Below, piece after piece: positions 386 through 63,984 of a stretch of DNA of 64,000 nt. Numbering within the stretch: the stretch's first letter is position 1; every line of letters starts with the position of its first letter. The notes beneath the pieces were generated by a model. The model was given only the letters and a program-made list of their open reading frames with translations, was not told the DNA's origin and searched no databases. Both the position numbers and the translations under genes were made by a program. This stretch comes from a virus. The DNA is taken from positions 32,001 through 96,000 of IMG/VR virus record IMGVR_UViG_3300045988_172839; one strand, written 5' to 3'.

Positions 386-1120
386 TTAAAATACTTCAAG
401 GTCTTTTTCCAGTTTTTCGGAAGTTGGGATACCCAAAACCTCAGTGGCGAAAATAGTATTTGCTGCAAGTACATAAGGTGTTACATACAAACCAAGTAAC
501 CCACCTGTTGCAAACACACCTAGAACCCACCAAAAGAAACTCATGTTTTGTACGAACAAAGTCATTTTATGACCTTTCATCTTCTGCTTACTTTCTTTAA
601 GAAGTGCAAACAAACCAAGTTCTTCATTTGTTTTTGCTAGATAAACCGCTAATGCGTACTCATAAGTTTTTATCAAACCAATGAACCCACCAAAGATCAA
701 TAAAGCAACACCAAGCCAAAATAGTATACCAAAGCTATTTGACACCAAAGCAGCGACAATTAGACCGATACCAACTACATAAGGTAAGAAGAACCACAGA
801 CCAATCATAAAACCAGCTAACAAAGCTGTTTTAAAGGTGTGAGCAGTCAGACTACCAAACATATCCGAAATCTTACGACCTAACTGTTTTTCTACTAGGT
901 GGTGTTTCGTTAAAATGTCAAATAGATAAAGACTTGCACATAGTTCATAGAGCAAAGTTAGTCCAGAGATAGCTGAGGATACCCCTGTGGCACTTTCGTT
1001 AAACGCAAAAGCTAAGTTTACTAAAACAAGTACCAAACATGGTAGACCTAAAGCCAACCACAAATTGTCTTCAGCAATCATCTGTTTAGCTTGCTTTTTA
1101 ATTTCTTGTCTGGATTTCAT
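386..1120 (-). CDS. Polytopic membrane protein, DUF975-like.
   Basis: 244-aa ORF with AGGAGG RBS (1131-1136) and its own promoter and terminator. It has about 6 hydrophobic helices. The N-terminus MKSRQEIKKQAKQ... resembles DUF975 family starts (from memory). Confidence 0.55.
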   Translation of the reverse strand: MKSRQEIKKQAKQMIAEDNLWLALGLPCLVLVLVNLAFAFNESATGVSSAISGLTLLYELCASLYLFDILTKHHLVEKQLGRKISDMFGSLTAHTFKTALLAGFMIGLWFFLPYVVGIGLIVAALVSNSFGILFWLGVALLIFGGFIGLIKTYEYALAVYLAKTNEELGLFALLKESKQKMKGHKMTLFVQNMSFFWWVLGVFATGGLLGLYVTPYVLAANTIFATEVLGIPTSEKLEKDLEVF

Positions 1121-1155
1121 AAAATCAAGACCTCCTAAATTTTCATAATAGATAT

Positions 1156-1184
1156 AGTATAACAGAACTTATAAGTATTTGCAA
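1156..1184 (-). promoter_or_regulatory. Sigma-A type promoter TTGCAA-17-TATACT.
   Basis: -35 at 1179-1184 and -10 at 1156-1161 (revcomp), 17-bp spacer. Confidence 0.55.
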
Positions 1185-1200
1185 TAAATTTATTAAATAT

Positions 1201-1231
1201 AGCAAAAAGAAAGAGAGGTTTACCTCTCTTT
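1201..1231 (-). terminator. Rho-independent terminator after ORF 1235..1906.
   Basis: Stem aaagagagg/cctctcttt (1210-1218 / 1223-1231), loop ttta, then CTTTTT on the minus strand. Confidence 0.65.
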
Positions 1232-1234
1232 TAC

Positions 1235-1906
1235 TTAAATTTCAACAAAAGACTTATCGTAAACAGAACTTCCTTTCAACATCAGCTCTAACATCTTATC
1301 TGTGTCACCATCAAGCTCGTAGAAATCTAACCCACGGTCAATCTCCGTACCATCTGCGGTTTCAATTACATAGTGGTAAGTTGCACCTTTAAGATAGTCA
1401 TTATAAATTGCTAACACATAGTTTACCATATCTAAAATATCACGCTCAATAGATTTTGTAATACGCTTAGTGTCATACCATCGGTAAATTTCGTCACGTG
1501 TTGCGAAGGCGAAACCTACAAAATCTCTATGTGGTTCATATTCAGTTGTAAATTTAAGAGTTGGATAGTAGTCTAAAGACATTGTAGGTTCACTAAATAA
1601 TGGAACTGCATAAACATTAGCAGTCTTATAGAAAGATTCAACCAGCTTATCTACAAACTCTATTAAATCACGACTCTTCAAACGTAATTGTTCTGTAAAA
1701 CCAACCTTAATGTAATCATCTATAAATTCAGCCATCTTTGGATATCTATGAGGTTGTATTGAAGTAAACTCAGGAAACCATGTGAAATATCTACACAAAG
1801 TTCGAGTCCACTCTTCACTCAACGGAACAACATTTGGCTCGTCTCTGTAAATTGTCATTATGTCGCCAGAGTTGTTTTTCAACTCAAAATAAATCTCTTT
1901 TTCCAT
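1235..1906 (-). CDS. Hypothetical protein.
   Basis: 223-aa ORF lying 3 nt downstream of the stop of ORF 1910..4600, on the same strand. No motif recognised. Confidence 0.65.
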   Translation of the reverse strand: MEKEIYFELKNNSGDIMTIYRDEPNVVPLSEEWTRTLCRYFTWFPEFTSIQPHRYPKMAEFIDDYIKVGFTEQLRLKSRDLIEFVDKLVESFYKTANVYAVPLFSEPTMSLDYYPTLKFTTEYEPHRDFVGFAFATRDEIYRWYDTKRITKSIERDILDMVNYVLAIYNDYLKGATYHYVIETADGTEIDRGLDFYELDGDTDKMLELMLKGSSVYDKSFVEI

Positions 1907-4686: not shown

Positions 4687-6330
4687 TTATTTTGAACTCA
4701 CATCTAATGCAGTTCGTAATGCTAAGTCATTCTTAATGTCTTGTCCGGGGAATTTATGACCTAGACTTTCTTGAGCTTTCTTAGCACGTTCTTTACGAGA
4801 ATAACCTTTCTTCTCCCCTGCTTTAATCGCAATGTAAGCAAGAGACCAAGCATTTAAAATTCGTCTACGGAACTCTTCATCCATAGTGTCTAAATGCTCT
4901 TTATCTGTTGTAAGAGTTCCCATTTTCTCCATAGTATGCAACAAATGGTGGCAACCAATACACAAGGTAATCAAGTTCTTCTCATCATCTGTTCCACCTG
5001 CGTGAACTGGAACTTTATGGTGAACTACCAACTGAGACAAGAAAGCACCTTGGTTTTCAACCTTATCTTTAGAGCAACACTGACAAACCATTTTGTCTCT
5101 TGCTTTAATCTTGTTCTTAACCTCTGGAGTTAAATCATCATCTCCATCACCTTTACGGTCTTGAACAATACCCTTATCCACTGCATCTGCTTGTTCTAAA
5201 GCACTCTCTAAGGTCAAGTTATCCATAGAGTTATCTGCTAGTTCCAGAAGTTCATCAACCTCTTGAGCGCTCAGTTTGTTATTACCTGAGTTTTCACCTT
5301 CTTCAGAAGAACCATCATTTTCACTTGAACTACCCTCTTCATCAGACACAACTGCTTCCTTACCAAGCTCAGTCGAAGAGAGGATACCCTTATTGTCTTC
5401 CTCCTCAAGTACATCACGCTCTTTCCGTTGTTTTACCAACTCTTTATAAGCTTTGTCCAATGTGTACTTACCTGCAAACAACTCAGTCATAGGCTCTGGG
5501 TAAGTATCAGACTCACTGCAGACCTCTTTCAATTTCAGAACATCTCCACTCTCCAAATAAGGGTACAAACGCTCAATTTGAGAGAACTTCAAACCATATT
5601 CGTGTTCCAAGGTAGAAAGTCCGTTCCAAATCTCTTGGTAATTGTGTTGTTGTTGCTTATTCAAAATCAGACCCAGCAAAGGAACCAAACGTTGTGCTTT
5701 CTCATAATCTGCAAAATGCCACACAAAAGCTGGAATAGTTTTGTAACCATTACGAGATGCACCATAAACTCGACGGAGACCTGAAATCAAAGTGTACATT
5801 TCAATTTCTTCACCATCTACCGAAGGTAAAGCCAATACATCAATAGGGTTTAAAACTCTACCAAAATCTTCAATCGAAGCAGTCAAACCATTCTTAGTTG
5901 CAAAGCGAGCCTTTTTATCAAACTCCGTAATGACAATCGACTCAATCGGTAAATCCATACGCAACTCACGGTCGTATTTCAAGCCACTAAGAATCTTATC
6001 AATATCCTCAAATGGACTAAGTACCGAAGGAGTTTCGGATACCCCTACAATATCTACGGGTGTTTCTACTTCTAAACCTTCTAACTCAGAAAGACTCTCA
6101 GAAGCTCCTATTTGCTCCGTGTCGAGAGTTTTTTCCGAGTCGATATTTTCCCCACCTACTTCTTCTAAATCGACTGTGGGCAATTCTGAGGCCTCAGGAG
6201 ACCACTCTACAACTTCTTCTCCTACCTCTGAATAAGGTACTACTTCTTCTCCAACTAGAGCTTGTTCTTGACTAGAAGACACACCAACTTCTAAGTCGTC
6301 TAAGTCTCCCCATAAATTATCTTTATCCAC
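4687..6330 (-). CDS. ParB/Srx-like N-terminal domain fused to a C-terminal HNH endonuclease through a long acidic linker.
   Basis: ParB box-II-like LISGLRRVYGAS. HNH signature: CQCCS...VVHHKVPVHAGGTDDEKNLITLCIGCHHLLH. The N-terminus and linker are acidic and low-complexity. Confidence 0.75.
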   Translation of the reverse strand: MDKDNLWGDLDDLEVGVSSSQEQALVGEEVVPYSEVGEEVVEWSPEASELPTVDLEEVGGENIDSEKTLDTEQIGASESLSELEGLEVETPVDIVGVSETPSVLSPFEDIDKILSGLKYDRELRMDLPIESIVITEFDKKARFATKNGLTASIEDFGRVLNPIDVLALPSVDGEEIEMYTLISGLRRVYGASRNGYKTIPAFVWHFADYEKAQRLVPLLGLILNKQQQHNYQEIWNGLSTLEHEYGLKFSQIERLYPYLESGDVLKLKEVCSESDTYPEPMTELFAGKYTLDKAYKELVKQRKERDVLEEEDNKGILSSTELGKEAVVSDEEGSSSENDGSSEEGENSGNNKLSAQEVDELLELADNSMDNLTLESALEQADAVDKGIVQDRKGDGDDDLTPEVKNKIKARDKMVCQCCSKDKVENQGAFLSQLVVHHKVPVHAGGTDDEKNLITLCIGCHHLLHTMEKMGTLTTDKEHLDTMDEEFRRRILNAWSLAYIAIKAGEKKGYSRKERAKKAQESLGHKFPGQDIKNDLALRTALDVSSK

Positions 6331-6336
6331 TTTAGC

Positions 6337-7713
6337 CTACTTTCTTAAAAACTGATCTACTGAGCGACCTTTGGAGTCACATACTGTAGTTATACCTAAC
6401 TCTGGTGACGACCAAAAGTAAATTGGACTTTCTGGTTTCAAACCTAATACTAGAATATCTAATGGACTCTCTAACGGTAACTCTAATACAGTTTGACCTG
6501 CAATTTCAATGCCTAAATCTTCACTGTTTTTACCATGCAACCCCAAATCTAACGCGCTATCTAACAACTTAGGTTTATTGTTTGCAAAATCATAGAAACC
6601 AAAATAAGCACTACCATCAACTTCAAACTGAGCTGTCACATCTAAGTACGAAACGACTGCAAAAGGTTTTAACCCTTCTAAAGTCTGTTTCCAATGAATG
6701 TACTGTAACTTCGCTTTCTGAGGGTTTACAGACCATAAAATTGGATTAACTACTACACTATCAAAACCGAACTCTTTAAATCTTTGACTGTGATGACTTG
6801 CTACACTCACTCTCAAATTTGTTGACAAAGCACTAACATCAGCGAGGTCTTCAAGCAAAGATACCCAATCTTCTACAATCGAGTTAATATTTTGGTCTGT
6901 TTCTAAGTTATAACGAATATAAGGAAGCGTGTCAAAACCTAAATCTTGTACAAACTTACACTCATCATCTCGTTTTGCAAAGTTCAGTCCAAACTCAATA
7001 TACTCAGAAGCATAAAAACGGATGGTAGAAATTAACTGAGGTGTTAAGTCCAACTTCGTATAGCTCATACTAGGAGTCAAATCCTCTTCAACAATCGAGG
7101 TATACAAATAACCGCAAATAGCACTCTTTGGAATTTGAGCTAGGTCAACTAAAGTTGTTAAACCTCTACGCTCTAAATAAGGAAGAACCAAGCGTGTACA
7201 GTCCACACCTTCTCTACCCTCTTCCAAAGAAATCGCACGTTGAAAGAGTCCATGCTCATATACTAAAGAGACTTTGTTGTTACTTAAAAAGACCTCTACA
7301 TAAAGCTCTACATTGTCTTTAGCTGCTAACTCTAACAAGCTCACATAATCATCATAGAAAGGTTCTGCCTTGGTTAGATACGGAAGTTGAGCCATCTTTT
7401 GACTCTCTTCAACCAAATAAGTATCACCCTTTGGCAAGCGAGCTTTCAACATATCTTGGTATTGTAAATAGTCTCTACCTAGAGGTGTATCTTCTGCTCT
7501 CAATAATAATTGTTCTCTTAAAGACTGTAACTCCTTTTCGAGCAAATAGTAAGATACCACTCTATGTTGGCTGTAAGTTCCATTAGCTAACTCTTTATCT
7601 AAAGTGTTGACTAACTCTTCTCGTTTATTTAATAACTCCTTTAATCGTGTACCAATTTCAACTGCACTTGGCACAATCCCTAAAAACGGAGACACTTCAA
7701 GCTTTGTTTGCAA
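6337..7713 (-). CDS. Hypothetical protein; possibly a catalytically dead NAD-dependent DNA-ligase-like (adenylation + OB) fold.
   Basis: The segment YVEVFLSNNKVSLVYEHGLFQRAISLEEGREGVDCT lines up by eye with LigA [35 protein letters not shown], but the KxDG lysine is replaced (K->F, D->S, G->N). Later LigA motifs also look substituted. The alignment is from memory only. Confidence 0.35.
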   Translation of the reverse strand: MQTKLEVSPFLGIVPSAVEIGTRLKELLNKREELVNTLDKELANGTYSQHRVVSYYLLEKELQSLREQLLLRAEDTPLGRDYLQYQDMLKARLPKGDTYLVEESQKMAQLPYLTKAEPFYDDYVSLLELAAKDNVELYVEVFLSNNKVSLVYEHGLFQRAISLEEGREGVDCTRLVLPYLERRGLTTLVDLAQIPKSAICGYLYTSIVEEDLTPSMSYTKLDLTPQLISTIRFYASEYIEFGLNFAKRDDECKFVQDLGFDTLPYIRYNLETDQNINSIVEDWVSLLEDLADVSALSTNLRVSVASHHSQRFKEFGFDSVVVNPILWSVNPQKAKLQYIHWKQTLEGLKPFAVVSYLDVTAQFEVDGSAYFGFYDFANNKPKLLDSALDLGLHGKNSEDLGIEIAGQTVLELPLESPLDILVLGLKPESPIYFWSSPELGITTVCDSKGRSVDQFLRK

Positions 7714-8830: not shown

Positions 8831-9763
8831 TTAAACTGTAACTAAAGCTACATTGACCACAATGTAATACATATCAGATTCTTCAAAAACCTCTGCTTTT
8901 ACTCCAAATCGACCAAGGTGGGGAGTTTCTAAAATGTAGGACTTAGACTCAATCTCTTCTTTCCCACAAGTATCAACCCATGTGTGGATTTGATTTTTGG
9001 GGATACCGCTGACATGTTCTACTGGGAATTTAGCATATTTCTCAGCCTTAGATTTATCTGTATAAACTTTAACTGAGGTTTTTCGACTTAACACTTGAGG
9101 TTTTTCATCTAAACCATAAGTCTTCACACAATGAATTGCTAAACCAACTGCATCCAGTTGGTCTTGGTAGCCACTCTTTAGATAAACTTCAAAGGAATCG
9201 TATTCTCGCCATTTGTTCGCCCAAGGATGTGCTAACTCTTGCAAGCACAAAAGAATTTCTTCTTTTTCTGCATTGTCTTTTGACCAAACTGCTTTCTTTA
9301 ACGGTGCTACACCAGTTTCAGAACGCAAAGTAGCTTTCCACGTTTTGTTGGATACCCTAAAGAACCGTTTGGCTTTTAAGACACCTTCTGCTAACAAGTA
9401 GTCAAGTGTAAAGTTCAGTGCGTAAGCTACAGAAGAGGTCTTCGCATTGTTTCCAAGCAATGCTTCTTCCACACACAACATATCAAGCTCCACTTCTCCC
9501 TTTAAAACTTTCATAAGCAAGAAATCTTTCAACTCTTGCATTCGAAGACCTACGGAGTAAGGACTATCTAAATCCTTAATAGAACTCTTCAAGTTAAAGG
9601 TTTCTAAAGTTTGTCCGTTCCAATAGGCGATACCAGTGGAGGTTTTAGACAAGTCTAAAGCCAAAACACTGTTTAAACCAAAGCGCTCAGAACCTTCTTT
9701 GAAGTAGTCTAAGTAAGTAAAACAAGGAGAACCCCCAAAATCTTCCATATCAAATGTGAACAT
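8831..9763 (-). CDS. RuvC-like (RNase H fold) nuclease with a C-terminal extension.
   Basis: VLALDLSKTSTGIAY (first Asp), LCVEEAL (Glu) and DQLDAVGLAIH (last acidic pair) follow the order of RuvC-family resolvase motifs. The start overlaps the stop of the upstream gene. Confidence 0.45.
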   Translation of the reverse strand: MFTFDMEDFGGSPCFTYLDYFKEGSERFGLNSVLALDLSKTSTGIAYWNGQTLETFNLKSSIKDLDSPYSVGLRMQELKDFLLMKVLKGEVELDMLCVEEALLGNNAKTSSVAYALNFTLDYLLAEGVLKAKRFFRVSNKTWKATLRSETGVAPLKKAVWSKDNAEKEEILLCLQELAHPWANKWREYDSFEVYLKSGYQDQLDAVGLAIHCVKTYGLDEKPQVLSRKTSVKVYTDKSKAEKYAKFPVEHVSGIPKNQIHTWVDTCGKEEIESKSYILETPHLGRFGVKAEVFEESDMYYIVVNVALVTV

Positions 9764-10389
9764 TAAGCAGAACTCCCTTCTGTACTTTTCTTAGACGACT
9801 TCACTTCAAGAACTTTATTAGTTATCAAGGTCAACTGTTCTTTCAAACCTTGTAAAGATAGAGAACCTTGGTTAAACTTCTCTTTCAAAGTCTCCACATT
9901 TTCTCTATGAATAGAGACTGTGTAAGGGGGAGCTTTTGAAAAGTCAAACTTAGACTTCTCTTCTTGAACCTCTACAATCGTATCAGTCAATTCAATACCG
10001 TAAAGTTTAGCTAAACTTTGCAAGTAGCCAAAACTATTAGGATAACGTTCTCCTAAGTATTGTTCTGCAAAGAGCTTATGAAATCCAATGATTGTACCTT
10101 TTACCCCACAACCAAAGCAGTTGAAAACCTCAATGCCAGTTTCACCGTCTTTGACGATACCGAGTGAGGGTTTTAAATCCTCATGGAAAGGGCAAACAAC
10201 ACGACTGTTCCCTGCACTAAACCTATAATCTGAATAGCGAGGTTGGTGTCTACAAACCACAACGTCCCAGTAGTTTGAAATGGTTACATCAAAGTGTCCA
10301 ATAAAGTTTTTGTGGTAAAGCAACTGTTCTTCCAACTGACGATAAGAGGCTTTAACTGTCCTTCTCTTAACTCTTGAAGTACCAATCAT
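9763..10389 (-). CDS. Stand-alone DnaG-type CHC2 zinc-finger protein (no TOPRIM domain recognised).
   Basis: CPFHEDLKPSLGIV...FNCFGCGVKGTIIGF matches the CHC2 primase zinc-binding domain. The protein is only 208 aa and its C-terminal part has no TOPRIM acidic motifs. Confidence 0.7.
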   Translation of the reverse strand: MIGTSRVKRRTVKASYRQLEEQLLYHKNFIGHFDVTISNYWDVVVCRHQPRYSDYRFSAGNSRVVCPFHEDLKPSLGIVKDGETGIEVFNCFGCGVKGTIIGFHKLFAEQYLGERYPNSFGYLQSLAKLYGIELTDTIVEVQEEKSKFDFSKAPPYTVSIHRENVETLKEKFNQGSLSLQGLKEQLTLITNKVLEVKSSKKSTEGSSA

Positions 10390-11320: not shown

Positions 11321-12725
11321 TTAATATCTTTTCAACTCCTTCCCTTACTTTTTCAAATTCTAAAATTTCCCACGTGTTATAAGCACTTAATAACTCTTCT
11401 GAAACTCCGTCACTTGGAGCCAGCAAGATATTTGAGGATACCGAAATCAGTGAGTTCCAACTCTTCTTATTCATCGCTACGCTTGGAACACCATCCGTAT
11501 TGTTAATGAATATAGGTAGTTCATAAGTGTTATTGGCTACTTTCAAGAACTCAACCATACGGTAAACATTGAAATAACCTCTATAGGTTTGATCCAAGGG
11601 AAGTCCTCTCAAGGTATCTTTCAAGACAGAAACCAATAATTCCTTAGAGTAGAATGGTAACTGCAACTTTTGAAAGATTTCAGTTTTTGAACCTTCTGCT
11701 ACATACTTGTAACTTGCTTTATTCAAAGGAAAGACTTTTAAAGCAAATACTTGGTTGTACAGTTGGCGAAACTCAGATACCGAAAGAACACCTTCTAGGT
11801 CTTTTTTCTCCAACAAACCAAGGCAGATTAAAGCACCTAATCGAACATCTGAGACTGAACCTAAAGTCATTATCTTATCTAAATGACGAACTAAGTCATA
11901 AGGTACAAACTCTTCTGTGCCTGGTTCTTTACCGACTAAAGCAGACTTCAAGGCACTAGAGACTTCATTGGGTTGCAAAGCAAATTTAGCTAAGAATGAG
12001 TTGTAAGAAATATAGTAAGACCCATTTATTTCAAAACTATCACTTGATTTTGTTCCTCTCAAGTAATTCAGTACAGAAGTTTCTACGAACGTACCAACAC
12101 CTTTGACCGACAAAGGTTGGATACCCATTGAGAAAAGTCTGCTACGCTCAGTAAATGTTAAATTTACCAAAGTATGTTGAGTTAAAAAGGCACAAACAGT
12201 AGCGTAAGTCACACTTGGTAAAATATACACCTTCTTCTTAGACTTAGCACCTACAATATTAGTTAATCGCAACTCTAAATACCGAACCAAAGAGTAAAGT
12301 TGACTTGGACTCAACTCTAACTTACTTGCAACTCTCTCAATAGAATAATCTAACTGACCTTGTAAGTCTTGAACAAACTGAAAGTATTCATCTGTTAAGC
12401 TATCTGACCAATAATAAGGAGTATTAGTAAACAAATCTCTCACAATCGAACTAGGTCCAGACTCTAAAAACTTATCAATAAATTCTTTTTTGTCATAAAC
12501 CTCTTTTAACTGCTCTACTACTTTCTCTAAAGTATAAACACACAAAGAAGGTGCTTGTGAGAACAACACCTTACTTAAACGAGGGTAGGTATCCTTAGAG
12601 ATAACCTCTAAACCACCTTTTACTTTTACTACTTCAAATTGAGCTTGGGAGCGAACGTAGTCCTCAGACACCCTAAAGAACTGCGCTAAGTCTCCGACAC
12701 TCACACAAATTTCAAATTTAGACAT
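11313..12725 (-). CDS. Putative DNA-binding protein with two HTH-like segments (candidate initiator or helicase partner).
   Basis: The track ORF is 11313..12758. The ATG at 12725 has a GGAG RBS and an ATGTCTAA overlap with the helicase stop, so it is the likelier start. HTH-like segments: VSVGDLAQFFRVSEDYVRS and SIERVASKLELSPSQLYSLV. Confidence 0.45.
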   Translation of the reverse strand: MSKFEICVSVGDLAQFFRVSEDYVRSQAQFEVVKVKGGLEVISKDTYPRLSKVLFSQAPSLCVYTLEKVVEQLKEVYDKKEFIDKFLESGPSSIVRDLFTNTPYYWSDSLTDEYFQFVQDLQGQLDYSIERVASKLELSPSQLYSLVRYLELRLTNIVGAKSKKKVYILPSVTYATVCAFLTQHTLVNLTFTERSRLFSMGIQPLSVKGVGTFVETSVLNYLRGTKSSDSFEINGSYYISYNSFLAKFALQPNEVSSALKSALVGKEPGTEEFVPYDLVRHLDKIMTLGSVSDVRLGALICLGLLEKKDLEGVLSVSEFRQLYNQVFALKVFPLNKASYKYVAEGSKTEIFQKLQLPFYSKELLVSVLKDTLRGLPLDQTYRGYFNVYRMVEFLKVANNTYELPIFINNTDGVPSVAMNKKSWNSLISVSSNILLAPSDGVSEELLSAYNTWEILEFEKVREGVEKILNG

Positions 12726-14310
12726 TGATATCTCCAACATCCAAGACGACAGCTTCACCGTTCCGCATTTCTATCACTTGGTCTTTCATTTCTATCACAT
12801 TATTCGCAACCTTATCCGTAAAGACCGAAAGCGGAGCCATCTCCCCTGCTAAACGTGAAGGAAGTAAGTACATTTTGGCTATGTTCTTTGCAGACATAGC
12901 GTCATTTGTATACAACATCAAGTTTAAGTCTGCTGATTTTGTTAATTCTTTCGAATCAGCCGTAACGTTTCGCAACTCACGGTGGATACCCTTACCTAAA
13001 TCTTGAATAACATCAGTAGCCAACTGTGAAGGCAACCAAACACAAATATCTAATAAACCTTTCAATGTCTCTAAACGTATAGACAACTTCTCTAACATAG
13101 TTTTCTTATCAGGGTACTGACTGCTATCCATCGCTTGTGCGTAGTCAATAACGACAAACTTACACTCTTTTTCCTCTGCTGCAACTCGAAGAACGGTTTC
13201 AACCGATTCCAACTCAAACGGATAATCTGGTAAATATATTTTACCATAATTTGGGTTACTTACCAAGTCCATGCGAGAAATTTTTTCTAACTCTGCAACC
13301 GAGCTATCTAAAGTACCACGCTGAATGTCGATACCGGCAATCTTTTCGTAGTTTTGACCTCTTTGTACATTGTAGTAATAATCAAAGTGAGTTGCACGCA
13401 ACTCAGCCATTACCTTGCCCGACCCTCCTTCTTTCCCCCAAAAGCAAATACCGAAACCATTTAGGAGAATTTCATGAGACAAGCGAACTGCAAATTTCGA
13501 TTTCATACCCTTCTCTGGGGCTGCAAAGACCGCAAAGGTGTTGGTATAAATCCCACCAATCGTAGCACTTAATGTCGGTAAATGCTGCAAATTAGACAAC
13601 AAAGTAGGCTTGTTAGACTCTTCTTCCTCAAAGTCAATATCTGAGGCACAAACGAGCTGATAAGAGTTTTCTTTACCTAATGAAGCCTTAATACTATTGA
13701 CTTTCTGTGAAAGGAAATCAAGCGCACCTTCGATACCGAAGAATGATTTACGTTGAGACCGAATTGGGTTCGTTAAGGCAATCGAGGCTTGTTGCAAAGA
13801 GTCATTAAAGGCTAATTTTGCATAGACCAACTTAAAGCGGGTTAAGGCATCTTCAAAGGTCGGCTCTTTCAAGAAAGATGGGCTACGGTATTTTTGGTAA
13901 ACCTCTACTACTGAAACCAACAAACCTTCAATCGCAGTTGAACCCTCACTTACATAAGACTCAAATTGAATACGGTCAGTGTCTTGTGCAATCTCAGAAG
14001 CGTTTGCTTGCAAGTAAACTTTCAAATAGTCTAAGTCAAGCAACAACCCTCTTTCCATCTGTACTTTCTTCAACATAGAGTAAAGCACATAGTTCTCATT
14101 GCGGAAATAATCATTTTGCAGACGACCCATCTGACCTCTTAGAGAGTCGAAGTCTCTAAGAAGATACCCCATCACTTGGTTTTCATAATACTCAAGTTGA
14201 ACCTCTGGGCTTTTATCTGAAATCTCAGAAGGTGTAATGTCTGACACATAGGCAGACTCCGTTCCTTCTGCTTCAGACATCAATTCCCAAAGCTCTTTAT
14301 CTTCAAACAC
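12718..14310 (-). CDS. DnaB-like replicative helicase (RecA-fold) with a deviant Walker A.
   Basis: The Walker B region CKFVVIDYAQAMDSS resembles DnaB LIVIDYLQLM. The P-loop region reads AAPEKGMKSKFA rather than GxxxxGKT. GTG start. Confidence 0.55.
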   Translation of the reverse strand: MFEDKELWELMSEAEGTESAYVSDITPSEISDKSPEVQLEYYENQVMGYLLRDFDSLRGQMGRLQNDYFRNENYVLYSMLKKVQMERGLLLDLDYLKVYLQANASEIAQDTDRIQFESYVSEGSTAIEGLLVSVVEVYQKYRSPSFLKEPTFEDALTRFKLVYAKLAFNDSLQQASIALTNPIRSQRKSFFGIEGALDFLSQKVNSIKASLGKENSYQLVCASDIDFEEEESNKPTLLSNLQHLPTLSATIGGIYTNTFAVFAAPEKGMKSKFAVRLSHEILLNGFGICFWGKEGGSGKVMAELRATHFDYYYNVQRGQNYEKIAGIDIQRGTLDSSVAELEKISRMDLVSNPNYGKIYLPDYPFELESVETVLRVAAEEKECKFVVIDYAQAMDSSQYPDKKTMLEKLSIRLETLKGLLDICVWLPSQLATDVIQDLGKGIHRELRNVTADSKELTKSADLNLMLYTNDAMSAKNIAKMYLLPSRLAGEMAPLSVFTDKVANNVIEMKDQVIEMRNGEAVVLDVGDINV

Positions 14311-19226: not shown

Positions 19227-19412
19227 TTAATAGTCACGTTTAGGTTGCTCAGTATTGAAAATAACTGCTGCATAAATCCAAGTTTCATCGTGAGAAATTG
19301 AAACGCTTTGAATGTAAAAATCTTCGTTCTTGTTCAAAACACGCTCAATTTGTTGTTCTAAATCCACAGTAGTTTGACCACTAAAAATGCGTACTGTGCT
19401 CTTCTTAACCAT
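19227..19412 (-). CDS. Hypothetical protein.
   Basis: 61-aa ORF that overlaps the SNF2 gene stop by 8 nt. Confidence 0.45.
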   Translation of the reverse strand: MVKKSTVRIFSGQTTVDLEQQIERVLNKNEDFYIQSVSISHDETWIYAAVIFNTEQPKRDY

Positions 19413-21132
19413 GTAAAGTTAAACCTTCTTTCGTTTCTTCTAAATCATCCGACCATTTAGGGTGAGAAACAACTCCGTTCATATCTTGGTTCGAGTAGGA
19501 TACTGCTATAATAGATGAATTTGCTCCCTCTGAAATCTCTTGCTTAGTAACTTCCACCACAGTATTTACTAGGTCTGGGTCTAAAAAGAAATTGTTCAAT
19601 AAGCTAACTTCATGTTTGGTATGAGCTAATCTATCTTTCGTACTCACACAAGCTTCTTCTAAAACTTTATACTCTTCTCTTCTAGCTAAAACTAAGTAAA
19701 TATGCTTATCATGAATATCTTGACTACGAACAATACGACCTTCAATCTGATTCGTAATCCCTGAATTTCCAGTGAAAGAATAAAATACCAAATGATTCAT
19801 AAAACCAAGGTTCAAACCTTTCTTCAAGTTAGTTACAATCACTCTGTAACCACCATCATGAAACTCTTTTAATTTCGCCTCTTTCTTCTTAGGAGTATTA
19901 TCCTCACCGTTTATAGTGAGAGCTTTTATTCCCAACCCCCCCAAAAAGCGAACTAAGATATTCTGAGCTTCAACAGAATGTACATAAATCAAGGCTTTGT
20001 CTTGACCTATACGGTATTTAAACAAATCTTCAATCACTTGCAACTTAGGTAAAACCTCTGGTGTAATTTCTAAATCGGGATCAAACCAAGAAGGTTCGTC
20101 CCAAACATAACGCTTATGTCTAGTTTTACTGAATAACTTGTTTTGGTACTGGGATGGTTTATACAAGACCAACTCACAAGTCGAGTTTTTAACGGATACC
20201 CCTAGCTCTTGACGAGCCGTTCCAAAAGCCATAAATCGAGTACAAACTTTAAACAACTCTGGGTCTTTGTAACCTAAAATTTGGTGTGTTTGGAAGGATT
20301 TCTTCACAAACAACTCTTCGAACTTGGTTTTTAAAGGCATAGATTCTGGGAAAAGGAAATTAAGCTGATTGTACATTCCCTCAATCGACTTCTCAAAAGG
20401 AGTGGCGTTCATTACAACTACATGGTTTGCAAACTTAGTTCGTACAGTTTTACAAGCCTTATAAATATCAGACTTCGTAGAACCCAACACCGAACCTTCA
20501 TCAATAAAGAAATAATCAAATTTACCATGTAACTTCGTAGTGTGTGCAAGCCACAACATGAAATCGTGACTTGAAGAGACTGCTGAATAAGAAGCAACTA
20601 CACCACTAAGATACCCTAACTCTTTTTGCTCTTTGATAAAAGCACTTACTTGGTTGGAGTCTCCTGTGGTTGTTGCTACATAGTCTCCTGTAAAGCGAAT
20701 TAACTCTTTTCGAGCTTGTGCAACCAAACCAACCTCAGTCAAAAACAAATAACGCAAAGGTTTACCTTTGGTACGTTGCTTCAAGGCTCCTACATGGTTA
20801 ATAACCGAAGCAACTGTAGCCGTTTTCCCCAACCCTACACTATCCATAATGAGAGCAGAACGAGCAGCTAAAATAAAGTGGACTCCGTAGGTTTGATACC
20901 ACCGTAGAGAACCTTTTGCTACACCTTCTTTTAAAGACGACTTTGTAGCAATGACTTGCTCTACTTGCTCAGGTGTTAAATCTAATAAACTATCTGCTAA
21001 CTCCGGAAAACCTACTTGGTCTTTATCCTCATTGGCTTTTTGAATAATGCTATCTAACAACTGGTAACGTTGTATAGGAGCTGATTTATCTATAAATCCA
21101 CCCTTGTAAAGTGAGACCTCTGTTACTGCCAC
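19405..21132 (-). CDS. SNF2/SWI2-family helicase-like ATPase.
   Basis: LRWYQ, DSVGLGKT (motif I), FFIDEGS (motif II), NATPFEKS (motif III), QIEGRIVRSQ (motif VI). GTG start. Confidence 0.85.
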   Translation of the reverse strand: MAVTEVSLYKGGFIDKSAPIQRYQLLDSIIQKANEDKDQVGFPELADSLLDLTPEQVEQVIATKSSLKEGVAKGSLRWYQTYGVHFILAARSALIMDSVGLGKTATVASVINHVGALKQRTKGKPLRYLFLTEVGLVAQARKELIRFTGDYVATTTGDSNQVSAFIKEQKELGYLSGVVASYSAVSSSHDFMLWLAHTTKLHGKFDYFFIDEGSVLGSTKSDIYKACKTVRTKFANHVVVMNATPFEKSIEGMYNQLNFLFPESMPLKTKFEELFVKKSFQTHQILGYKDPELFKVCTRFMAFGTARQELGVSVKNSTCELVLYKPSQYQNKLFSKTRHKRYVWDEPSWFDPDLEITPEVLPKLQVIEDLFKYRIGQDKALIYVHSVEAQNILVRFLGGLGIKALTINGEDNTPKKKEAKLKEFHDGGYRVIVTNLKKGLNLGFMNHLVFYSFTGNSGITNQIEGRIVRSQDIHDKHIYLVLARREEYKVLEEACVSTKDRLAHTKHEVSLLNNFFLDPDLVNTVVEVTKQEISEGANSSIIAVSYSNQDMNGVVSHPKWSDDLEETKEGLTLHG

Positions 21133-21165
21133 AAATTTTCGCCTTTCTTACTGTTTTTATATCTA

Positions 21166-21194
21166 ATTTTAGCAAACTCAAAGAAAAAAGTCAA
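21166..21194 (-). promoter_or_regulatory. Sigma-A type promoter TTGACT-17-TAAAAT.
   Basis: -35 at 21189-21194 and -10 at 21166-21171. The -35 sits in the 3' arm and T-tract of a short hairpin (aaggg/ccctt, 21193-21206). Confidence 0.55.
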
Positions 21195-21211
21195 GGGATT
21201 ACCCTTAACTT

Positions 21212-21487
21212 TTACTTGTTTTCTAATGCTTTGTAAAACTCACTTAAAATAAGCGCGTCTACTTCTTTTTTAAACTCTGGGTTTAAAGCAGTTACAACTG
21301 GCTTATAAACCTCTGCGTACAATTTACGCTCTGGGAACAAAACCTTATATTGTGAACCTTGTCGTTTCACTTTAATTCCGTGAACCACAAGCCAACCACC
21401 TACCAAAGCAGAACAAATTCCGCAAATTCCGTTTGGAATACCTTCTGCATTGACTTTCACAAAGCGAATGTTTTCTACTAATTTCAC
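21212..21487 (-). CDS. SpoVG-like small nucleic-acid-binding protein.
   Basis: The 91-aa protein (IRFVKVNAEG...LVVHGIKV...VLFPERK...) is collinear by eye with SpoVG (VRLRRVNTEG...FVVHDIRV...FVAMPSKR). Confidence 0.4.
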   Translation of the reverse strand: MKLVENIRFVKVNAEGIPNGICGICSALVGGWLVVHGIKVKRQGSQYKVLFPERKLYAEVYKPVVTALNPEFKKEVDALILSEFYKALENK

Positions 21488-27444: not shown

Positions 27445-27489
27445 TTACACTTCACCATTCTAAACTAATAACTCAAATTACAGTTCTCT

Positions 27490-27700
27490 AATTTCTTAAC
27501 AAAATTAAAGTTTCCAACATAAGTTGTTTCTCACCTTACTCTTGCGCAGTGTACTGCGCAAGAGTCGGAGTTGAGGCGACTGCGACTACCCTCTATACAA
27601 TCCAAGACTTAGTTAGTCTCATCATGTTTTACTTTTTATACTTTAAAGAAGTTTAACTAATTGAGGATTTACCATAAATTGAACCAACGTTTGATGTAGC
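27490..27700 (-). ncRNA. Candidate TnpB omega-RNA (reRNA) scaffold.
   Basis: This is the region spanning the 3' end of tnpB and just downstream of it, where omega RNAs are encoded. It contains a locally GC-rich perfect 12-bp hairpin ctcttgcgcagt-gt-actgcgcaagag (27539-27564) without a T-tract. The extent is not determinable by eye. Confidence 0.35.
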
Positions 27701-29509: not shown

Positions 29510-29596
29510 AAAGACACCTCCTTTCTTATTACAACTAAAGTGTAACACAAAAAGGTATATGTATCAAGTTTAGTATTAAAATTTTTAAAAATTTTG

Positions 29597-48274: not shown

Positions 48275-49591
48275 TTAAAAACTATCAAACATATCAACCA
48301 TTTGGTCTGTAGACATTGGTTTTAAATCCAACTGCGCTTTTGCAATCGTGTTTTCATGGTGCGCTGCTTTGTCTTCCTTATGTTTTTGAGACATTTGTTT
48401 GCTTTCTAAAACCCTCTCATTGCCTTTAATCTCATTAACTTCAATACCTACAGAAGAGATTGAAGAAACGGAAGGAGTTGGAGCAAGCAAACCTCGATAC
48501 CCAAGGAGAAGTAACTGAGTTTCAATATCCCCTCGACCTAGGTTATTCAAAAACTCTAAAAGAGCCAAAATTTCTTCATTGTTGAATTTGTCAAATAAAT
48601 CTTTGTATAGCTTTAGTTCATCTTTGGTAATACCCAACACATGAAGCCCCAATGAAATGTAAAGACCTCTCTTAACAAACTCTCTCAAACCCTCAACAAA
48701 GTTCTTCAAACCAATTTCTAACATAGCAGTGTGTACTGTTTTTGTATAAAGAACTGTGTTCTTTGTTCTTAGGTAGTCTAAGAAATCAAAGTACAAACCT
48801 CTGTGCTTATTTACATCAAGAACTGCAACCACATCATCATAGCGAACCGAACCATAAGAACGGTACACATTCTCTAGTTGTTTTAAGGACTGACGGAAAA
48901 CACAATTTGAACGAACTGCAATCAACTCCAAAGCCGGTTTCTCGAAGGCGAAACCTTCTTCAGTCGATACCCAAGTCATAAGGTTCACATTATCTGCTAC
49001 GCTAGGTAACTCAATCTCAATCTTCAAATCCATACGAGTTTTCAAAGGCTCTAACATCTTCTGTGGGTCAGTCGTACAGAAGAAAAAGATAGACTTAGGT
49101 GGGGCATCTTCAGTAAACTTCAACATACTTTCTTGACCTGCTTTGGAAATCAAGTGACACTCATCAAAGATAAAAATAGAATACCCTGCAAATAGTTTAG
49201 GCATGGAAGCAGACTCTACAAACTGTCGGACTGCATCTACGTTCCCTGTTTTTGAAGAGTCCAATTCTTTAACTGAGAACAAATGTGTGGCATCTGCCGT
49301 CTCAATATAGTCATTCAAGTCTTGACACATCTTACATTGGTTGCAAGGTAACAAATACTCTCTATTCTTCCACTTACGGACTTGTTTATTCTCACACAAG
49401 ACCAACTTAGTAGACATACGAGCCATAGTTGTTTTACCACAACCACTTGCGCCTGAAATCATCACACAAGCTGGGTAGTCTTCTCCATCTTTAGAAGAAA
49501 AGCGGTTCAAAAGCTTTTGAACTGCTAACTCATTTCCGATATAGCGGTCTACATCTTTTGACCTGTATTTCGTTGCGAAATTTTCAGCCAT
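48275..49591 (-). CDS. DnaX (DNA polymerase III gamma/tau)-like AAA+ clamp-loader ATPase.
   Basis: GASGCGKTT (Walker A), Cys cluster LPCNQCKMCQD, IFIFDECH (Walker B) and FFFCTTDPQKMLEPLKTR (sensor) are collinear with DnaX domains I-II. Confidence 0.8.
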   Translation of the reverse strand: MAENFATKYRSKDVDRYIGNELAVQKLLNRFSSKDGEDYPACVMISGASGCGKTTMARMSTKLVLCENKQVRKWKNREYLLPCNQCKMCQDLNDYIETADATHLFSVKELDSSKTGNVDAVRQFVESASMPKLFAGYSIFIFDECHLISKAGQESMLKFTEDAPPKSIFFFCTTDPQKMLEPLKTRMDLKIEIELPSVADNVNLMTWVSTEEGFAFEKPALELIAVRSNCVFRQSLKQLENVYRSYGSVRYDDVVAVLDVNKHRGLYFDFLDYLRTKNTVLYTKTVHTAMLEIGLKNFVEGLREFVKRGLYISLGLHVLGITKDELKLYKDLFDKFNNEEILALLEFLNNLGRGDIETQLLLLGYRGLLAPTPSVSSISSVGIEVNEIKGNERVLESKQMSQKHKEDKAAHHENTIAKAQLDLKPMSTDQMVDMFDSF

Positions 49592-61591: not shown

Positions 61592-61962
61592 AGACTTACC
61601 ACCATTATTTCTTGCACAATCACACCATCTGGTGTAGGAGTTTCCATACGAGAAAATCCTTGAAGTTTACTGCTTCTTAACCACTGCTCTCTCAATACTT
61701 GGTATGTTTTAGCAGACAGAGGGTTTGCACATTTACAACCCTCTTTTTCATTATAAACAGTTACCGCAACCGAAGTGGATACCCCTTTGAGATATAAAAT
61801 AGAGAACACTTGAACAGGTCTATATCGTAGAAGAGTATTGCTATCTAAGTCTTCTAAGTCCATTTTCTTGATTAAACTGTGACTCTTATGTGCTAAGGTA
61901 TAAACCTTAGAACCTACAATGAACTCAACCCCAGCATTAAAAGGTTTGCTACGAACTAACAT
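61588..61962 (-). CDS. Hypothetical protein.
   Basis: 124-aa ORF, first after the promoter at 62009-62037. Confidence 0.55.
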   Translation of the reverse strand: MLVRSKPFNAGVEFIVGSKVYTLAHKSHSLIKKMDLEDLDSNTLLRYRPVQVFSILYLKGVSTSVAVTVYNEKEGCKCANPLSAKTYQVLREQWLRSSKLQGFSRMETPTPDGVIVQEIMVVSL

Positions 61963-62008
61963 CTTCCACTTCCTTCTCTAATCTAAACTCTAAATTGCAT
62001 TTTTCTCA

Positions 62009-62037
62009 ATTTTACCATATTTAGAGGGAAAATGCAA
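62009..62037 (-). promoter_or_regulatory. Sigma-A type promoter TTGCAT-17-(TG)-TAAAAT.
   Basis: -35 at 62032-62037 and -10 at 62009-62014. Confidence 0.55.
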
Positions 62038-62060
62038 GATTTAGACGATAAAGAAATGAT

Positions 62061-63626
62061 TTATTTATTGGCAAGTTGTTCTTCAAACTTAGTAGTGAAT
62101 GTATTAAACACATTCATTAAGTCACTCAGAGACACACGTGGGTCAAGGATACCAAAGTAAAATCTCTCGATATTTGAGTAATCTGTCTCTAACTTCTCTC
62201 CTGACATAGTGAGAGCTGAACCATTACCAAAGTGATAAGGTTTACTATACTTACTAAATACTACACCACCGATAAATTTTACATCGTTTGTCCGAGGATT
62301 TTGTTTTTCTGCAAACCAAGATAACTTGTTATAAGCTAATTGGAAATCTAACTCACTTGTTGTATTCACTAAAGCAGAGTGAACCATTTCACCATATCCG
62401 TCTAAAGTGGCTTGTAGAGTAGCTACCCTTTCAAAGAAAGCAGACTCCATAAATTTTAAGATAAGGTCTTTCTCTTGAAGTAAAAGACCATGTTCACTAA
62501 CCATAGAACCTTTAATAGATGACCAGGCACCTTTATCTTTATCTTGTTCACTAATGTAAGGCACTAAATCCCCTAAAAGAGAGTACATATTGTACAAAGA
62601 TACCGCTCCGAAGGTGTTCTCCATAAATCGGTAACGTAAGTTGTGCGCTCTTTGTTGCTCCAATTCTTTTAAGAACTGCAAACGAAGAGAGACAGGTAAA
62701 GGCATGTTTAAACTATTAAACTCTCGAACAAACTTCAACAAATACTCAATCTTAGAAGTTGGTTTCGCAAAACCACCATCTACCAAACTTTGCCAAAAGC
62801 TAGGTAAGGCAAAGCCGAAATTCTTCTGATACCCTAACTGTTGACTATAAGAGTAAGCATAAGTCAACATTTCATTGAAATAGCGAGTACGGAAGCGTAC
62901 CAACTGATTTTGTACTTGACCTTCAATATTGAAGAAGTCTTGCACACAGTCTACTCCAAACTTCAAAACTTCTCCTGTGGCCTCTTCTTCGGCAACGAAT
63001 TCCCATTTAATGTCGTGACCTAATGTACATTTAGCGCCTATTTCAAAGTAGTTTAGCTCCTTGAAGAACCACGTTCCACCACCCATTAGAGTTGCTAGTT
63101 TTGCTGCTTTTTCTCTAAAGTAATCGGTGTCAGTATTTAACTCTAATTCAATTCTTTGAAGTCCTTCTTCATAAAAACTCTCTTGTAAGAACCAACGAGA
63201 CAAAAGTTTTCTCTTCTCTTCACTAAAAGTCTCAGAAAAATAGCGAACATAAGAGGATACCACTGGGTATTGTGAACCTTGGAAGTTCTTTAATACTGTA
63301 CTTGTTGTACGAGCTAAAACTGGAACCTTAATCGAACTGTTTTCACCCTCTTCAAAGTAAAGACCACTCTCTTTAATATGGTTCAAAACTTGTTCCGACA
63401 AGACTCTACTTTTATCAATAAAGGCAGTTGGTACACTAAAGGACTTTAGTTTCTTACCACTCTGCATATAAAATCCGTAGCGGTCTTTTTCTTTAAAGTG
63501 AATACAAACCACCTGTCTCGGACTCTCAACTCCAACATCAGCTAAGCTCTCAAACTCAGTTAATAGTTTAGCTCCACCATCTGTTAAGTGACTTTCAATC
63601 TCTCTAACTGGTTTTCGACTAACCAT
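62061..63626 (-). CDS. Hypothetical protein.
   Basis: 521-aa ORF. Confidence 0.6.
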   Translation of the reverse strand: MVSRKPVREIESHLTDGGAKLLTEFESLADVGVESPRQVVCIHFKEKDRYGFYMQSGKKLKSFSVPTAFIDKSRVLSEQVLNHIKESGLYFEEGENSSIKVPVLARTTSTVLKNFQGSQYPVVSSYVRYFSETFSEEKRKLLSRWFLQESFYEEGLQRIELELNTDTDYFREKAAKLATLMGGGTWFFKELNYFEIGAKCTLGHDIKWEFVAEEEATGEVLKFGVDCVQDFFNIEGQVQNQLVRFRTRYFNEMLTYAYSYSQQLGYQKNFGFALPSFWQSLVDGGFAKPTSKIEYLLKFVREFNSLNMPLPVSLRLQFLKELEQQRAHNLRYRFMENTFGAVSLYNMYSLLGDLVPYISEQDKDKGAWSSIKGSMVSEHGLLLQEKDLILKFMESAFFERVATLQATLDGYGEMVHSALVNTTSELDFQLAYNKLSWFAEKQNPRTNDVKFIGGVVFSKYSKPYHFGNGSALTMSGEKLETDYSNIERFYFGILDPRVSLSDLMNVFNTFTTKFEEQLANK

Positions 63627-63984
63627 AAGCTACACCCCATTTCTCGAACGTCCCATCTCCTTTAGACAAGGAACGTAGAATAACCTTCCATTGGTCAAAC
63701 TGAACTTTTTCTTCTAAGACTAGAGCCAAGCGAGAAAAATCAAGCGGATACCCTAACTGGTAAGCTTGTTTTAGAACGGTGTATAAAGCTCTGAAGAACT
63801 TGTCCTCTAAAACATCTGGGGAATTTGTTTGAATGTAACGTGTAAAACGTTCATAATCTACTACGAAATGTAAAGGACTGTTTTCAAACAATTCAACTAC
63901 ACCTTCATCCGAGACTGTAGACAAAACCAAACTAGAAGACAAGCGTTTTAGACGAAAACGCAAAATGTCTTCTTCCAAATACAC
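63619..63984 (-). CDS. Hypothetical protein.
   Basis: 121-aa ORF with a GTG start. It overlaps the downstream gene by 8 nt. Confidence 0.5.
   Translation of the reverse strand: MYLEEDILRFRLKRLSSSLVLSTVSDEGVVELFENSPLHFVVDYERFTRYIQTNSPDVLEDKFFRALYTVLKQAYQLGYPLDFSRLALVLEEKVQFDQWKVILRSLSKGDGTFEKWGVAYG

Follow-up and report, generated by a model that had tools for sequence, protein, structure and literature searches.

Introduction

pXO16 is a 350-kb conjugative plasmid (a circle of 349.6 kb) of Bacillus thuringiensis sv. israelensis. Two ATPases are essential for its transfer, and no relaxase or oriT is known (PMC9673590). pXO16 mobilises DNA that has no oriT (PMC9673590, PMC6199540), and an intact single-strand origin matters for the mobilised plasmids, which points to transfer of single-stranded DNA (ssDNA) (PMC6199540). 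Inocles are giant elements from human saliva that carry VirB4/VirD4-type genes, have a GC content of 24-32% and are organised in two replichores (PMC12340149). Here, we analyse a stretch of 64,000 nucleotides (positions 32,001 to 96,000 of IMG/VR record IMGVR_UViG_3300045988_172839; hereafter the window), in which a short DNA word recurs on one strand at remarkably regular distances. The window occupies ~42.3-106.3 kb on a human oral metagenome contig of 238.7 kb, for which an independent Joint Genome Institute assembly measures 238.5 kb. Judged by its genes, the window is part of a ~240-kb giant plasmid-like element of the pXO16 family of conjugative, phage-like Bacillota replicons, and 24 of its proteins match the transfer ('tip') and replication regions of pXO16 in collinear order.

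DnaG and T7 primases use a zinc finger to read a trinucleotide on the ssDNA template, of which the 3' base is cryptic and remains uncopied while the 5' bases template the primer. The T7 sites 5'-(G/T)(G/T)GTC-3' give primers that start with pppACCC or pppACCA. The zinc-binding domain confers the sequence-specific recognition, and the T7 site 3'-CTGGT-5' yields pppACCA (PMC9198812). This domain works in trans, and residues beside its third zinc ligand set the cryptic base: with the T7 substitution His33Ala, d(GTA)/d(GTG) is recognised in place of d(GTC), and in the Firmicute DnaG sites d(CTA)/d(TTA) the cryptic base is A (PMC2978363).

A polar and evenly spaced word

An exact scan of the window finds 108 copies of GATACC on the plus strand (first at 428, last at 63747) and seven on the minus strand, compared with 13.8 +/- 4.2 copies expected on both strands together from dinucleotide shuffles. 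All 64 substantial open reading frames (ORFs) of the window lie on the minus strand at a coding density of 95%, and the plus strand is C-rich, with a GC skew of about -0.15 (range -0.10 to -0.21). Because all genes lie on the minus strand, the word is GGTATC on the coding, G-rich strand, and the array spans 428..63752 on the minus strand in the coding sense. Its extended coding-strand form is [C/G]GGTATC[not A]. GGTATC is 8-fold above the expectation of a second-order Markov model and 3-fold above that of synonymous-codon shuffles, whereas the opposite orientation occurs at the level of chance (7 seen versus 6.6-10.7 expected).

The 107 gaps between plus-strand copies have a mean of 591.8 bp and a standard deviation of 306.6, which gives a coefficient of variation (CV) of 0.518. 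Uniform placement yields a CV of 0.99 +/- 0.09, with a minimum of 0.68 in 20,000 simulations, and the observed distribution departs from an exponential (Kolmogorov-Smirnov (KS) p = 1.3e-8; gamma fit with shape 4.1). Short gaps are scarce: two are below 200 bp (53791 to 53921, 130 bp; 23262 to 23423, 161 bp) versus 30.7 expected, and 15 are below 300 bp versus 42.6 expected. Wide gaps are also rare. The four widest measure 1572, 1478, 1458 and 1428 bp, so that one exceeds 1500 bp versus 8.5 expected, and the widest gap under simulated random placement averages 3,112 bp. The copies are not clustered, with gaps of 130-1572 bp across the whole window. Variants of GATACC with one mismatch show no comparable enrichment, and the short-gap class is not filled by hidden copies. 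Over 83 kb of the window's own contig, the counts are 146 versus 7 and the CV is 0.53.

The regularity had been proposed from a hand catalogue in a sequence-only reading of the window, and the exact scan reproduces both its 108 plus-strand copies and their polarity. Three coordinates of that catalogue are off (427 for 428, 16729 for 16719 and 24579 for 24578), without effect on the result. Its mean gap of ~590 bp, its two gaps under 200 bp and its widest gaps of ~1.5 kb agree with the computed values, as do its random expectations of ~30 short gaps and ~8 gaps above 1.5 kb. The claim of more-than-random evenness holds, given that none of the simulations falls as low as the observed CV, and the two outcomes that had been named as fatal to it, additional copies in the short gaps and a CV near 1, are not what the scan finds.

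The signal lies in the nucleic acid

Reading frames 0, 1 and 2 hold 39, 23 and 44 of the sites, and 2 of the 108 are intergenic. Many different peptides are encoded across GGTATC, and shuffling synonymous codons within genes leaves 34 +/- 4 copies versus the actual 108, so a codon or peptide artefact is ruled out. The position of sites along genes is uniform (KS p = 0.90), and the number of sites in a gene rises in proportion to its length with less scatter than expected at random (chi-square 36.6, df 82), which rules out one regulatory site per gene. Since the word occurs in all three frames and uniformly along genes, it is a DNA-level signal. An avoidance of restriction of the Type III kind was also rejected because copies in the opposite orientation show no depletion, and those in the favoured one are in actual excess instead of simply being tolerated. 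The signal thus resides in the nucleic acid, is selected in one orientation and neutral in the other, and is set by distance rather than by gene.

In relatives, polarity and density of the word are kept across a region of ~8 kb with tRNA and transfer-messenger RNA (tmRNA) genes, and also in a segment with a local GC skew of ~0. A 1,164-aa ORF (L082:16586-20080) has a local GC skew near zero, and the word continues through it with unchanged polarity and density. Several IMG/VR contigs terminate within this region, which suggests that a repeat-rich or hypervariable gene interrupts their assembly.

Words of pXO16 and of related oral elements

pXO16 has a polar word of its own, [A/T]GGGGTA[G/T]. 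Its core GGGGTA occurs 657 times on one strand and 5 times on the other, at 37-54 copies per 25 kb all round the circle, with a mean gap of 531 bp, a CV of 0.71 and a widest gap of 2,071 bp. The opposite orientation is again at chance (5 versus 4.8-10.9 expected). All 455 annotated coding sequences of pXO16 lie on one strand, the GC skew is positive (0.10-0.28) all round the circle, and neither word, genes nor skew switches strand anywhere on it. A clustered locus such as iterons, parS or clt had been judged a poor fit for the window, and the spread of copies in both the window and pXO16 agrees with that judgement. On pBtoxis, a plasmid of the same strain, GGGGTA is at chance (11 and 7 per 50 kb), on which ground a word of the host as a whole was rejected. 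The streptococcal phage Sfi21 has 17 and 4 copies of GGTATC in 41 kb and no outstanding polar word.

GGTATC is present in every oral clade from 95% down to 61% identity of the FtsK-like protein, with the same polarity and evenness. At 22 related loci, 21 to 50 copies lie on the coding strand and 0 to 3 on the other, with a CV of 0.41-0.77, so the pattern first described in the window extends to its relatives. A single polarity holds over ~120 kb of one ~240-kb oral element, which was reached via IMG/VR contigs. Words differ between related oral elements, some of them from the same sample, and between more distant lineages. The top polar word of each lineage is given below with its counts on the coding and the other strand, the expected count and the CV of the gaps.

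L114: GGGTATC, 36 and 0, expected 1.0, CV 0.52
L128: GGGTACTC, 28 and 0, expected 0.2, CV 0.37
L129: GGGGTA, 42 and 0, expected 14.4, CV 0.91
L130: GGGGTA, 37 and 0, expected 8.4, CV 0.73
L133: GGGGTA, 42 and 0, expected 12.7, CV 0.65
L092/L115 (GC skew 0.45): weak GGGTA(T) bias only
L131: no word of this kind
L132: no word of this kind

G-GTA is common to all strong words (GGTATC, GGGTATC, GGGTACTC and GGGGTA). L092 and L115 (IMGVR_UViG_3300045988_184003, 225 kb) represent a related oral lineage with 34% GC and the high GC skew listed above. A pyrimidine preference (72-74%, information content 0.2-0.25) is seen 18 nt 3' of GGTATC on the coding strand in the window clade. It is absent from the 61% clade, the 75% clade and the L114 clade, and a longer or bipartite motif was rejected because the preference is confined to one clade and does not replicate.

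Could the word be a Chi-like mark of self? Such a mark would attenuate a helicase-nuclease, either AddAB/RexAB of the host or UvrD/SNF2 and HNH proteins of the element, and would thereby shield the ends of the element's DNA in sigma-type replication, at broken forks or upon arrival in a recipient. Like Chi, the word is polar, over-represented and located on the leading, G-rich strand, and its density is similar to that of short Chi sites in Firmicutes, for instance AGCGG. Even spacing would likewise be favoured if the cost rose with the length of DNA degraded before a site is met. pXO16 encodes a UvrD-like helicase in addition to the two kinds of protein found in the window:

4687..6330, minus strand: ParB-N plus HNH nuclease, present in all lineages of the family that were examined; also the candidate nickase of the nicking explanation below
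19405..21487, minus strand: SNF2-family helicase (19405-21132) and SpoVG-like protein (21212-21487), syntenic with pXO16

However, pBtoxis does not share the word of pXO16, and because words differ between related elements, some of them from the same sample, host AddAB is unlikely to be the reader. We know of no report of regularly spaced Chi sites, and no AddAB/RecBCD-type nuclease gene is seen in the parts of the element examined. A Chi-like marker is therefore unlikely, with a small residual chance of being correct.

Conservation and turnover of sites

When 15 loci of ~80-92% identity are aligned, hexamers at sites are identical in 78% of relatives versus 53% for all hexamers (p = 2e-6). 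Over larger distances, positions turn over while numbers are kept. When the window clade is compared with the 61% clade (57% mean protein identity), only 7 of 30 sites coincide in homologous position, and counts per gene are nearly identical despite this turnover. Losses tend to be accompanied by a neighbour: another site lies within 250 nt in 33 of 117 sequences that lack a polymorphic site versus 30 of 269 that have it (p = 7e-5, not phylogenetically corrected). Two alternative sites 34 bp apart are mutually exclusive among the 15 relatives (8 versus 7), and gains and losses are often synonymous, for example ATC/ATT/ATA and GGT/GGA. Whatever the mechanism, spacing as such is under strong and ongoing selection. 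The sequence-only reading had suggested selection for coverage by a signal on one strand, and the conservation of sites, their positional turnover, their nearby replacement and their uniform placement relative to genes all speak for it.

These data bear on two further explanations. The first is that the word has no function and results from shared ancestry or from biases in codon usage, peptide motifs or strand composition. Extreme co-orientation of genes and GC skew (0.15-0.45) do polarise many G-rich words. However, the word exceeds the expectations of the Markov model and the synonymous shuffles, is found in all frames and stands out with z-scores of 30 and 46 in these elements, versus at most 7.7 for the top polar hexamers of T7, Sfi21 and pBtoxis. 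Furthermore, its spacing is even, which composition cannot yield, and its sites show conservation with compensated turnover. The tests that were run contradict this explanation, and its chance of being right is negligible.

The second explanation is a T5-like set of periodic nick sites: the ParB-N/HNH nuclease would cut a single strand at each word, for instance to begin strand displacement or transfer at numerous positions. All lineages examined have this nuclease, the nicks of the T5 type affect one strand only, and pXO16 mobilises oriT-less DNA with no known oriT or relaxase of its own. On the other hand, copies on the opposite strand are not depleted although they would risk double-strand breaks, and breakpoints of indels between relatives show no association with sites. 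A nick or recombination hotspot at the sites was rejected on the same grounds, given that neither indel nor insertion breakpoints are associated with them. The divergence of the HNH-ParB protein also ignores word type, at 46% (L114, with GGGTATC) versus 49% (L115, with no word) identity to the window protein. Periodic nicking is thus very unlikely.

A primase zinc finger as candidate reader of the word

What reads the word? The replication genes of the window are as follows.

9763..10389, minus strand: DnaG-type CHC2 primase zinc-binding domain without a catalytic domain, 208 aa (Pfam PF01807, E = 1e-7; PDB 2au3 and 1d0q; PHROG DNA primase families; alignment)
12718..14310, minus strand: DnaB-like replicative helicase (Pfam DnaB_C; phrog_19, E = 6e-20; 26% identical to the pXO16 DnaB-like protein)
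48275..49591, minus strand: clamp-loader-like AAA+ ATPase (DNA_pol3_delta2; 34% identical to the pXO16 AAA ATPase)
6337..7713, minus strand: distant homologue of the pXO16 NAD-dependent DNA ligase (blastp 22% over 334 aa, E = 1e-10; no Pfam hit)

The replisome of the family is T7-like, with a family-A polymerase, a DnaB-family helicase, a zinc-finger-only protein, a ligase and gyrase. PolA is present in the relatives and in pXO16, and pXO16 also has a separate Toprim_2 protein (WP_000389279) beside its zinc-finger protein (WP_000365721) and its DnaB-like helicase (WP_001162832). More than 200 proteins belong to the zinc-finger-only family.

We propose that GGTATC most likely marks the sites at which a sequence-specific primase encoded by the element recognises the lagging-strand template and initiates primers, a proposal to which we give about even chances. 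The DnaG-type primase would be split into a zinc-finger-only protein and a separate Toprim protein, as in pXO16, and the 208-aa zinc-finger protein is the candidate reader of the word. The G-rich coding strand, to judge by GC skew, would be the lagging-strand template, and primers would start at the words. Each word can be read as built around d(GTA), namely GGGG-T-A in pXO16, S-GG-T-A-TC in this element and GGG-T-A-CTC in a third lineage, and the primer predicted for pXO16 is pppACCC with one further C (pppACCCC). The G-GTA build is, at the level of sequence, compatible with the architecture of primase sites, a trinucleotide with a cryptic 3' base.

The sites lie on the G-rich strand and are co-oriented with all genes; this strand would template the lagging strand if forks moved in the direction of transcription. 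Several observations agree with the proposal. The chance level of the opposite orientation fits sites that are irrelevant on the leading-strand template. Sites occur once per 0.45-0.9 kb, and the widest gaps are 1.6-2.1 kb. Such densities and gaps match the scale of bacterial and phage Okazaki fragments. In this AT-rich DNA, a 6-8-nt site would be expected by chance only every 5-10 kb, so selection would have to place one per ~0.5 kb and keep gaps below ~1.5-2 kb. Sites near another site would be redundant and decay, which would produce the under-dispersed spacing. The requirement for 6-8 nt would also explain why selection is needed here and not in T7.

The zinc finger itself co-varies with the word. 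In the 208-aa protein, the specificity strand reads EVFN-CFGCG. Asn precedes the third Cys in lineages whose words carry a 3' (C)TC extension (the four GGTATC clades and the distant L128 with GGGTACTC), and His precedes it in lineages with GGGGTA-type words (pXO16, L129, L130 and L133, and weakly L115). Word type thus appears to track one residue of the specificity strand, as a correlation in a small sample. Among ten proteins shared by L114 and L115, the extra divergence of L115 is greatest for the zinc-finger protein (35 versus 46% identity), followed by DnaB at 43 (L115) versus 50% (L114); the other shared proteins are within about 4 points.

Among the three mechanisms that the sequence-only reading had offered, Okazaki-type priming has the most specific support, and guidance of a translocase and nicking persist as rivals. 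Spacing alone cannot separate priming, a translocase guide and a Chi-like marker because any cost that rises with the distance to the next site favours even spacing. It is the combination of a T7-like replisome, the G-GTA architecture and the co-variation of zinc finger and word that favours priming.

Two transfer ATPases are encoded in the window.

22580..25069, minus strand: FtsK/SpoIIIE-family ATPase of the conjugative coupling-protein type, 829 aa (Pfam PF01580; 30% identical to the pXO16 FtsK-like protein)
25264..27444, minus strand: VirB4/TraG-like transfer ATPase (weak Pfam hit; 33% identical over 689 aa to pXO16)

If the words were a translocase guide, they would give the FtsK/SpoIIIE-family ATPase its direction, or allow it to load again, while 240-350 kb of DNA are exported by conjugation or segregated. 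The location of the ATPase gene in the transfer locus is consistent with such a role, as is the need of pXO16 for two ATPases with no known relaxase or oriT. The FtsK-orienting polar sequences (KOPS) and SpoIIIE recognition sequences (SRS) are likewise G-rich words on the leading strand, and a limit on the distance to the next site would again favour even spacing. However, only PF01580 is found in the FtsK-like ATPase and no gamma (winged-helix, sequence-reading) domain is detected, whereas the genuine FtsK proteins hit by the same profile all carry PF09397. FtsK-fold coupling proteins of Gram-positive type IV systems are not known to read sequence. Moreover, the density of the word is ~10 times that of KOPS, inverted copies are not depleted (a test of low power), the mobilisation data on pXO16 point to ssDNA transfer, and word type tracks the primase zinc finger. 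A translocase guide is accordingly improbable, but it keeps a minor share of our expectation.

A bolder form of the priming proposal is a private priming code. The split primase would require a 6-8-nt word, the lagging-strand template would be written with one such word per ~0.5 kb, and the code words (GGGGTA, GGTATC, GGGTACTC) would switch through changes in the zinc-finger specificity strand that are followed by genome-wide rewriting. We regard this code as possible but tentative, with chances clearly short of even.

Observations that weigh against priming

The following points weigh against the priming proposal. The direction of replication is deduced from GC skew, which is fully confounded with transcription since every gene is co-oriented. 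A gene for the catalytic Toprim partner was not found in the oral element. The correlation between zinc finger and word covers about 8 lineages, some of them sampled over 13-22 kb, with no phylogenetic correction. L092 and L115 encode homologues of the zinc-finger, DnaB, PolA and HNH-ParB proteins but show only the weak GGGTA(T) bias and no strong, evenly spaced word; their high G-richness may provide short sites by chance. The primase sites of T7 itself show neither polarity nor even spacing (CV 0.92-1.0), and T7 was accordingly rejected as a precedent for polar, evenly spaced primase sites. We know of no primase with a 6-8-nt specificity and a co-adapted genome.

Two further points on this side, which priming would not predict, hint at a connection with RNA 5' ends or with translation. 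In relatives, a distance of exactly 6-7 nt separates GGTATC from the mature 5' end of the downstream tRNA-Leu, tRNA-Lys, tRNA-Phe or tRNA-Asn, and the spacers before these four tRNAs are otherwise unrelated. In pXO16, ~87 of the 657 GGGGTA copies end 2-8 nt (peak 6-7) before ORF starts, which is the Shine-Dalgarno position, and intergenic DNA holds 23% of the copies in 12% of the sequence (loci L003-L009, whole plasmid). GGGGTA may double as a ribosome-binding site there. Both sets of cases, before tRNAs and at Shine-Dalgarno positions, may reflect a required word put to a second use in non-coding elements of similar sequence. The geometry upstream of the tRNAs is that of a promoter -10 element with a transcription start or of a processing site, and GGGTATCAT resembles an extended -10 element. 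The tRNA genes of these relatives (L118:12186-12625; L124:5380-6351) number 5-14, are accompanied by a tmRNA and lie ~25-35 kb downstream of the window start in the sense of transcription.

The same cases support a signal at the RNA level, such as a minimal promoter or re-initiation site, an anti-termination element like ops (operon polarity suppressor) or an RNA processing site. The word is on the sense (non-template) strand of every gene, and the RfaH ops element contains GGTAG. Nevertheless, the sites of the oral elements are distributed uniformly within genes without relation to gene starts, 2 of the 108 in the window are intergenic, no base is conserved 6-7 nt downstream of sites inside genes, and no RNA polymerase, sigma or NusG-like gene is found in the parts scanned. 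An RNA-level signal is distinctly unlikely, with a small residual chance.

The element and its relatives

About 25 related contigs of 160-284 kb are filed as viral in IMG/VR, and some are visibly circularly permuted. These elements (L019-L125) encode a T7-like replisome, tRNAs, a tmRNA and a type IV-like transfer locus. They constitute a family of the human mouth that resembles pXO16 and is apparently distinct from the published Inocle taxa. A described Inocle was rejected as the identity of the window's element: its GC content is 38%, the ~120 kb examined never change strand, and no InoC marker turned up in the window. The window has no megablast match among phages and plasmids, and two scans of GTDB genome contigs gave no match to the FtsK-like protein or to its alignment. 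An LPXTG adhesin of the antigen I/II type (L015:1-4165) adjoins the window and suggests an oral Streptococcus as the host. ORFs on the minus strand of relatives proved to be spurious antisense ORFs. In L132, a distant zinc-finger-only lineage, the family-A DNA polymerase gene contains an intein (L132:18119-20588; PT-HINT and Intein_splicing hits).

Two further features of the window are as follows.

35069..36781, minus strand: CHAP/GDSL cell-wall hydrolase of the transfer locus
27480..29548, minus strand: IS607-type insertion with serine recombinase, TnpB and omega RNA (Rfam RF02998, Pfam)

The IS607-type insertion is missing from 14 of 15 close relatives at this position. It is co-oriented with the genes of the element and contains two sense copies of GGTATC. 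A second copy, 89% identical, is found elsewhere in two relatives (L029/L034), again co-oriented and with two sense GGTATC at the same internal positions. The co-orientation and the retained words of both copies suggest a long-resident insertion sequence that has adapted to this element family. A plasmid collection held no useful relatives of the IS607 copy, and a search for remote portions of the elements by way of insertion sequences yielded only two short loci.

Implications and comparison with known systems

The polar word is not mentioned in reviews of pXO16 or in the Inocle paper, and full-text literature searches, whose reach did not extend to the original 2015 pXO16 sequence paper, found no description of it. 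To our knowledge, a replicon-wide, evenly spaced and lineage-specific 6-8-mer at one per ~0.5 kb has not been described to date. Strand-polar words such as Chi and KOPS/SRS and sequence-specific primases are already known kinds, and there is a substantial chance that a new principle is involved here. Selection on spacing as such is rare for DNA words.

If the priming proposal is true, these elements would be the first known case in which the whole sequence of a replicon is shaped by the specificity of its own primase. The starts of Okazaki fragments would be hard-wired, evenly spaced and legible from sequence alone, and the words would provide self/non-self discrimination at the level of replication and a new form of co-evolution between replicon and replisome. 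Control of Okazaki length, reading of DNA by zinc-binding domains and the change of a code across hundreds of sites would all become testable in the tractable pXO16. A polar, evenly spaced 6-8-mer is also a signature by which a poorly known family of 160-350 kb, widespread in human oral metagenomes, can be recognised and classified, and if the words are primase sites, it would further allow the replication polarity of each element to be deduced.

A close mechanistic parallel is provided by the sites of T7 gene 4 and DnaG primases. In both cases, short strand-specific words would be read by a CHC2 zinc-binding domain on the lagging-strand template, as proposed here, and a G/T run that templates the primer is followed by T and a cryptic 3' base, the words here ending in the d(GTA) type. 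The replisomes are also alike, with PolA, a DnaB-family helicase and DnaG-type primase parts. However, the words of these elements span 6-8 nt rather than 3-5 nt, show an 8- to 100-fold excess on one strand and are both conserved and evenly spaced, whereas T7 sites occur at chance frequency on both strands with a CV of ~1, the T7 pentamers recurring every 250 bp on both strands. In addition, the candidate zinc finger here is a separate polypeptide.

Chi shares with these words their over-representation, their strand polarity and their genome-wide occurrence on the leading (G-rich) strand. Chi is, however, specific to the host and shared by its chromosome, whereas the words described here are specific to the element and differ between related elements. 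KOPS and SRS are similarly polar and G-rich and could orient a translocase, and the replication module here has a gene for an FtsK-family ATPase beside it. They differ in being 8-mers that recur every several kb, are read by a gamma domain, which is not detected here, and flip at ori and dif, whereas pXO16 shows no flip and ~120 kb of the ~240-kb oral element has a single polarity.

The interruptions of T5 are sequence-specific one-strand sites on a large linear-like replicon, as the words are, and an HNH nuclease is present here. The major nick sites of T5 are few and unevenly spaced. Uptake signal sequences (USS) and DNA uptake sequences (DUS) resemble the words in being short and very abundant, and USS are reported to be spread more evenly than chance. 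In contrast to the words, USS and DUS occur in both orientations and in the host genome of competent species, whereas GGTATC is >93% polar (108 versus 7) and element-specific. As to whole replicons, the element resembles Inocles in its giant size, its origin in human saliva and its VirB4/VirD4-type genes, and it resembles pXO16 in its collinear transfer and replication modules and in carrying all of its genes on one strand.

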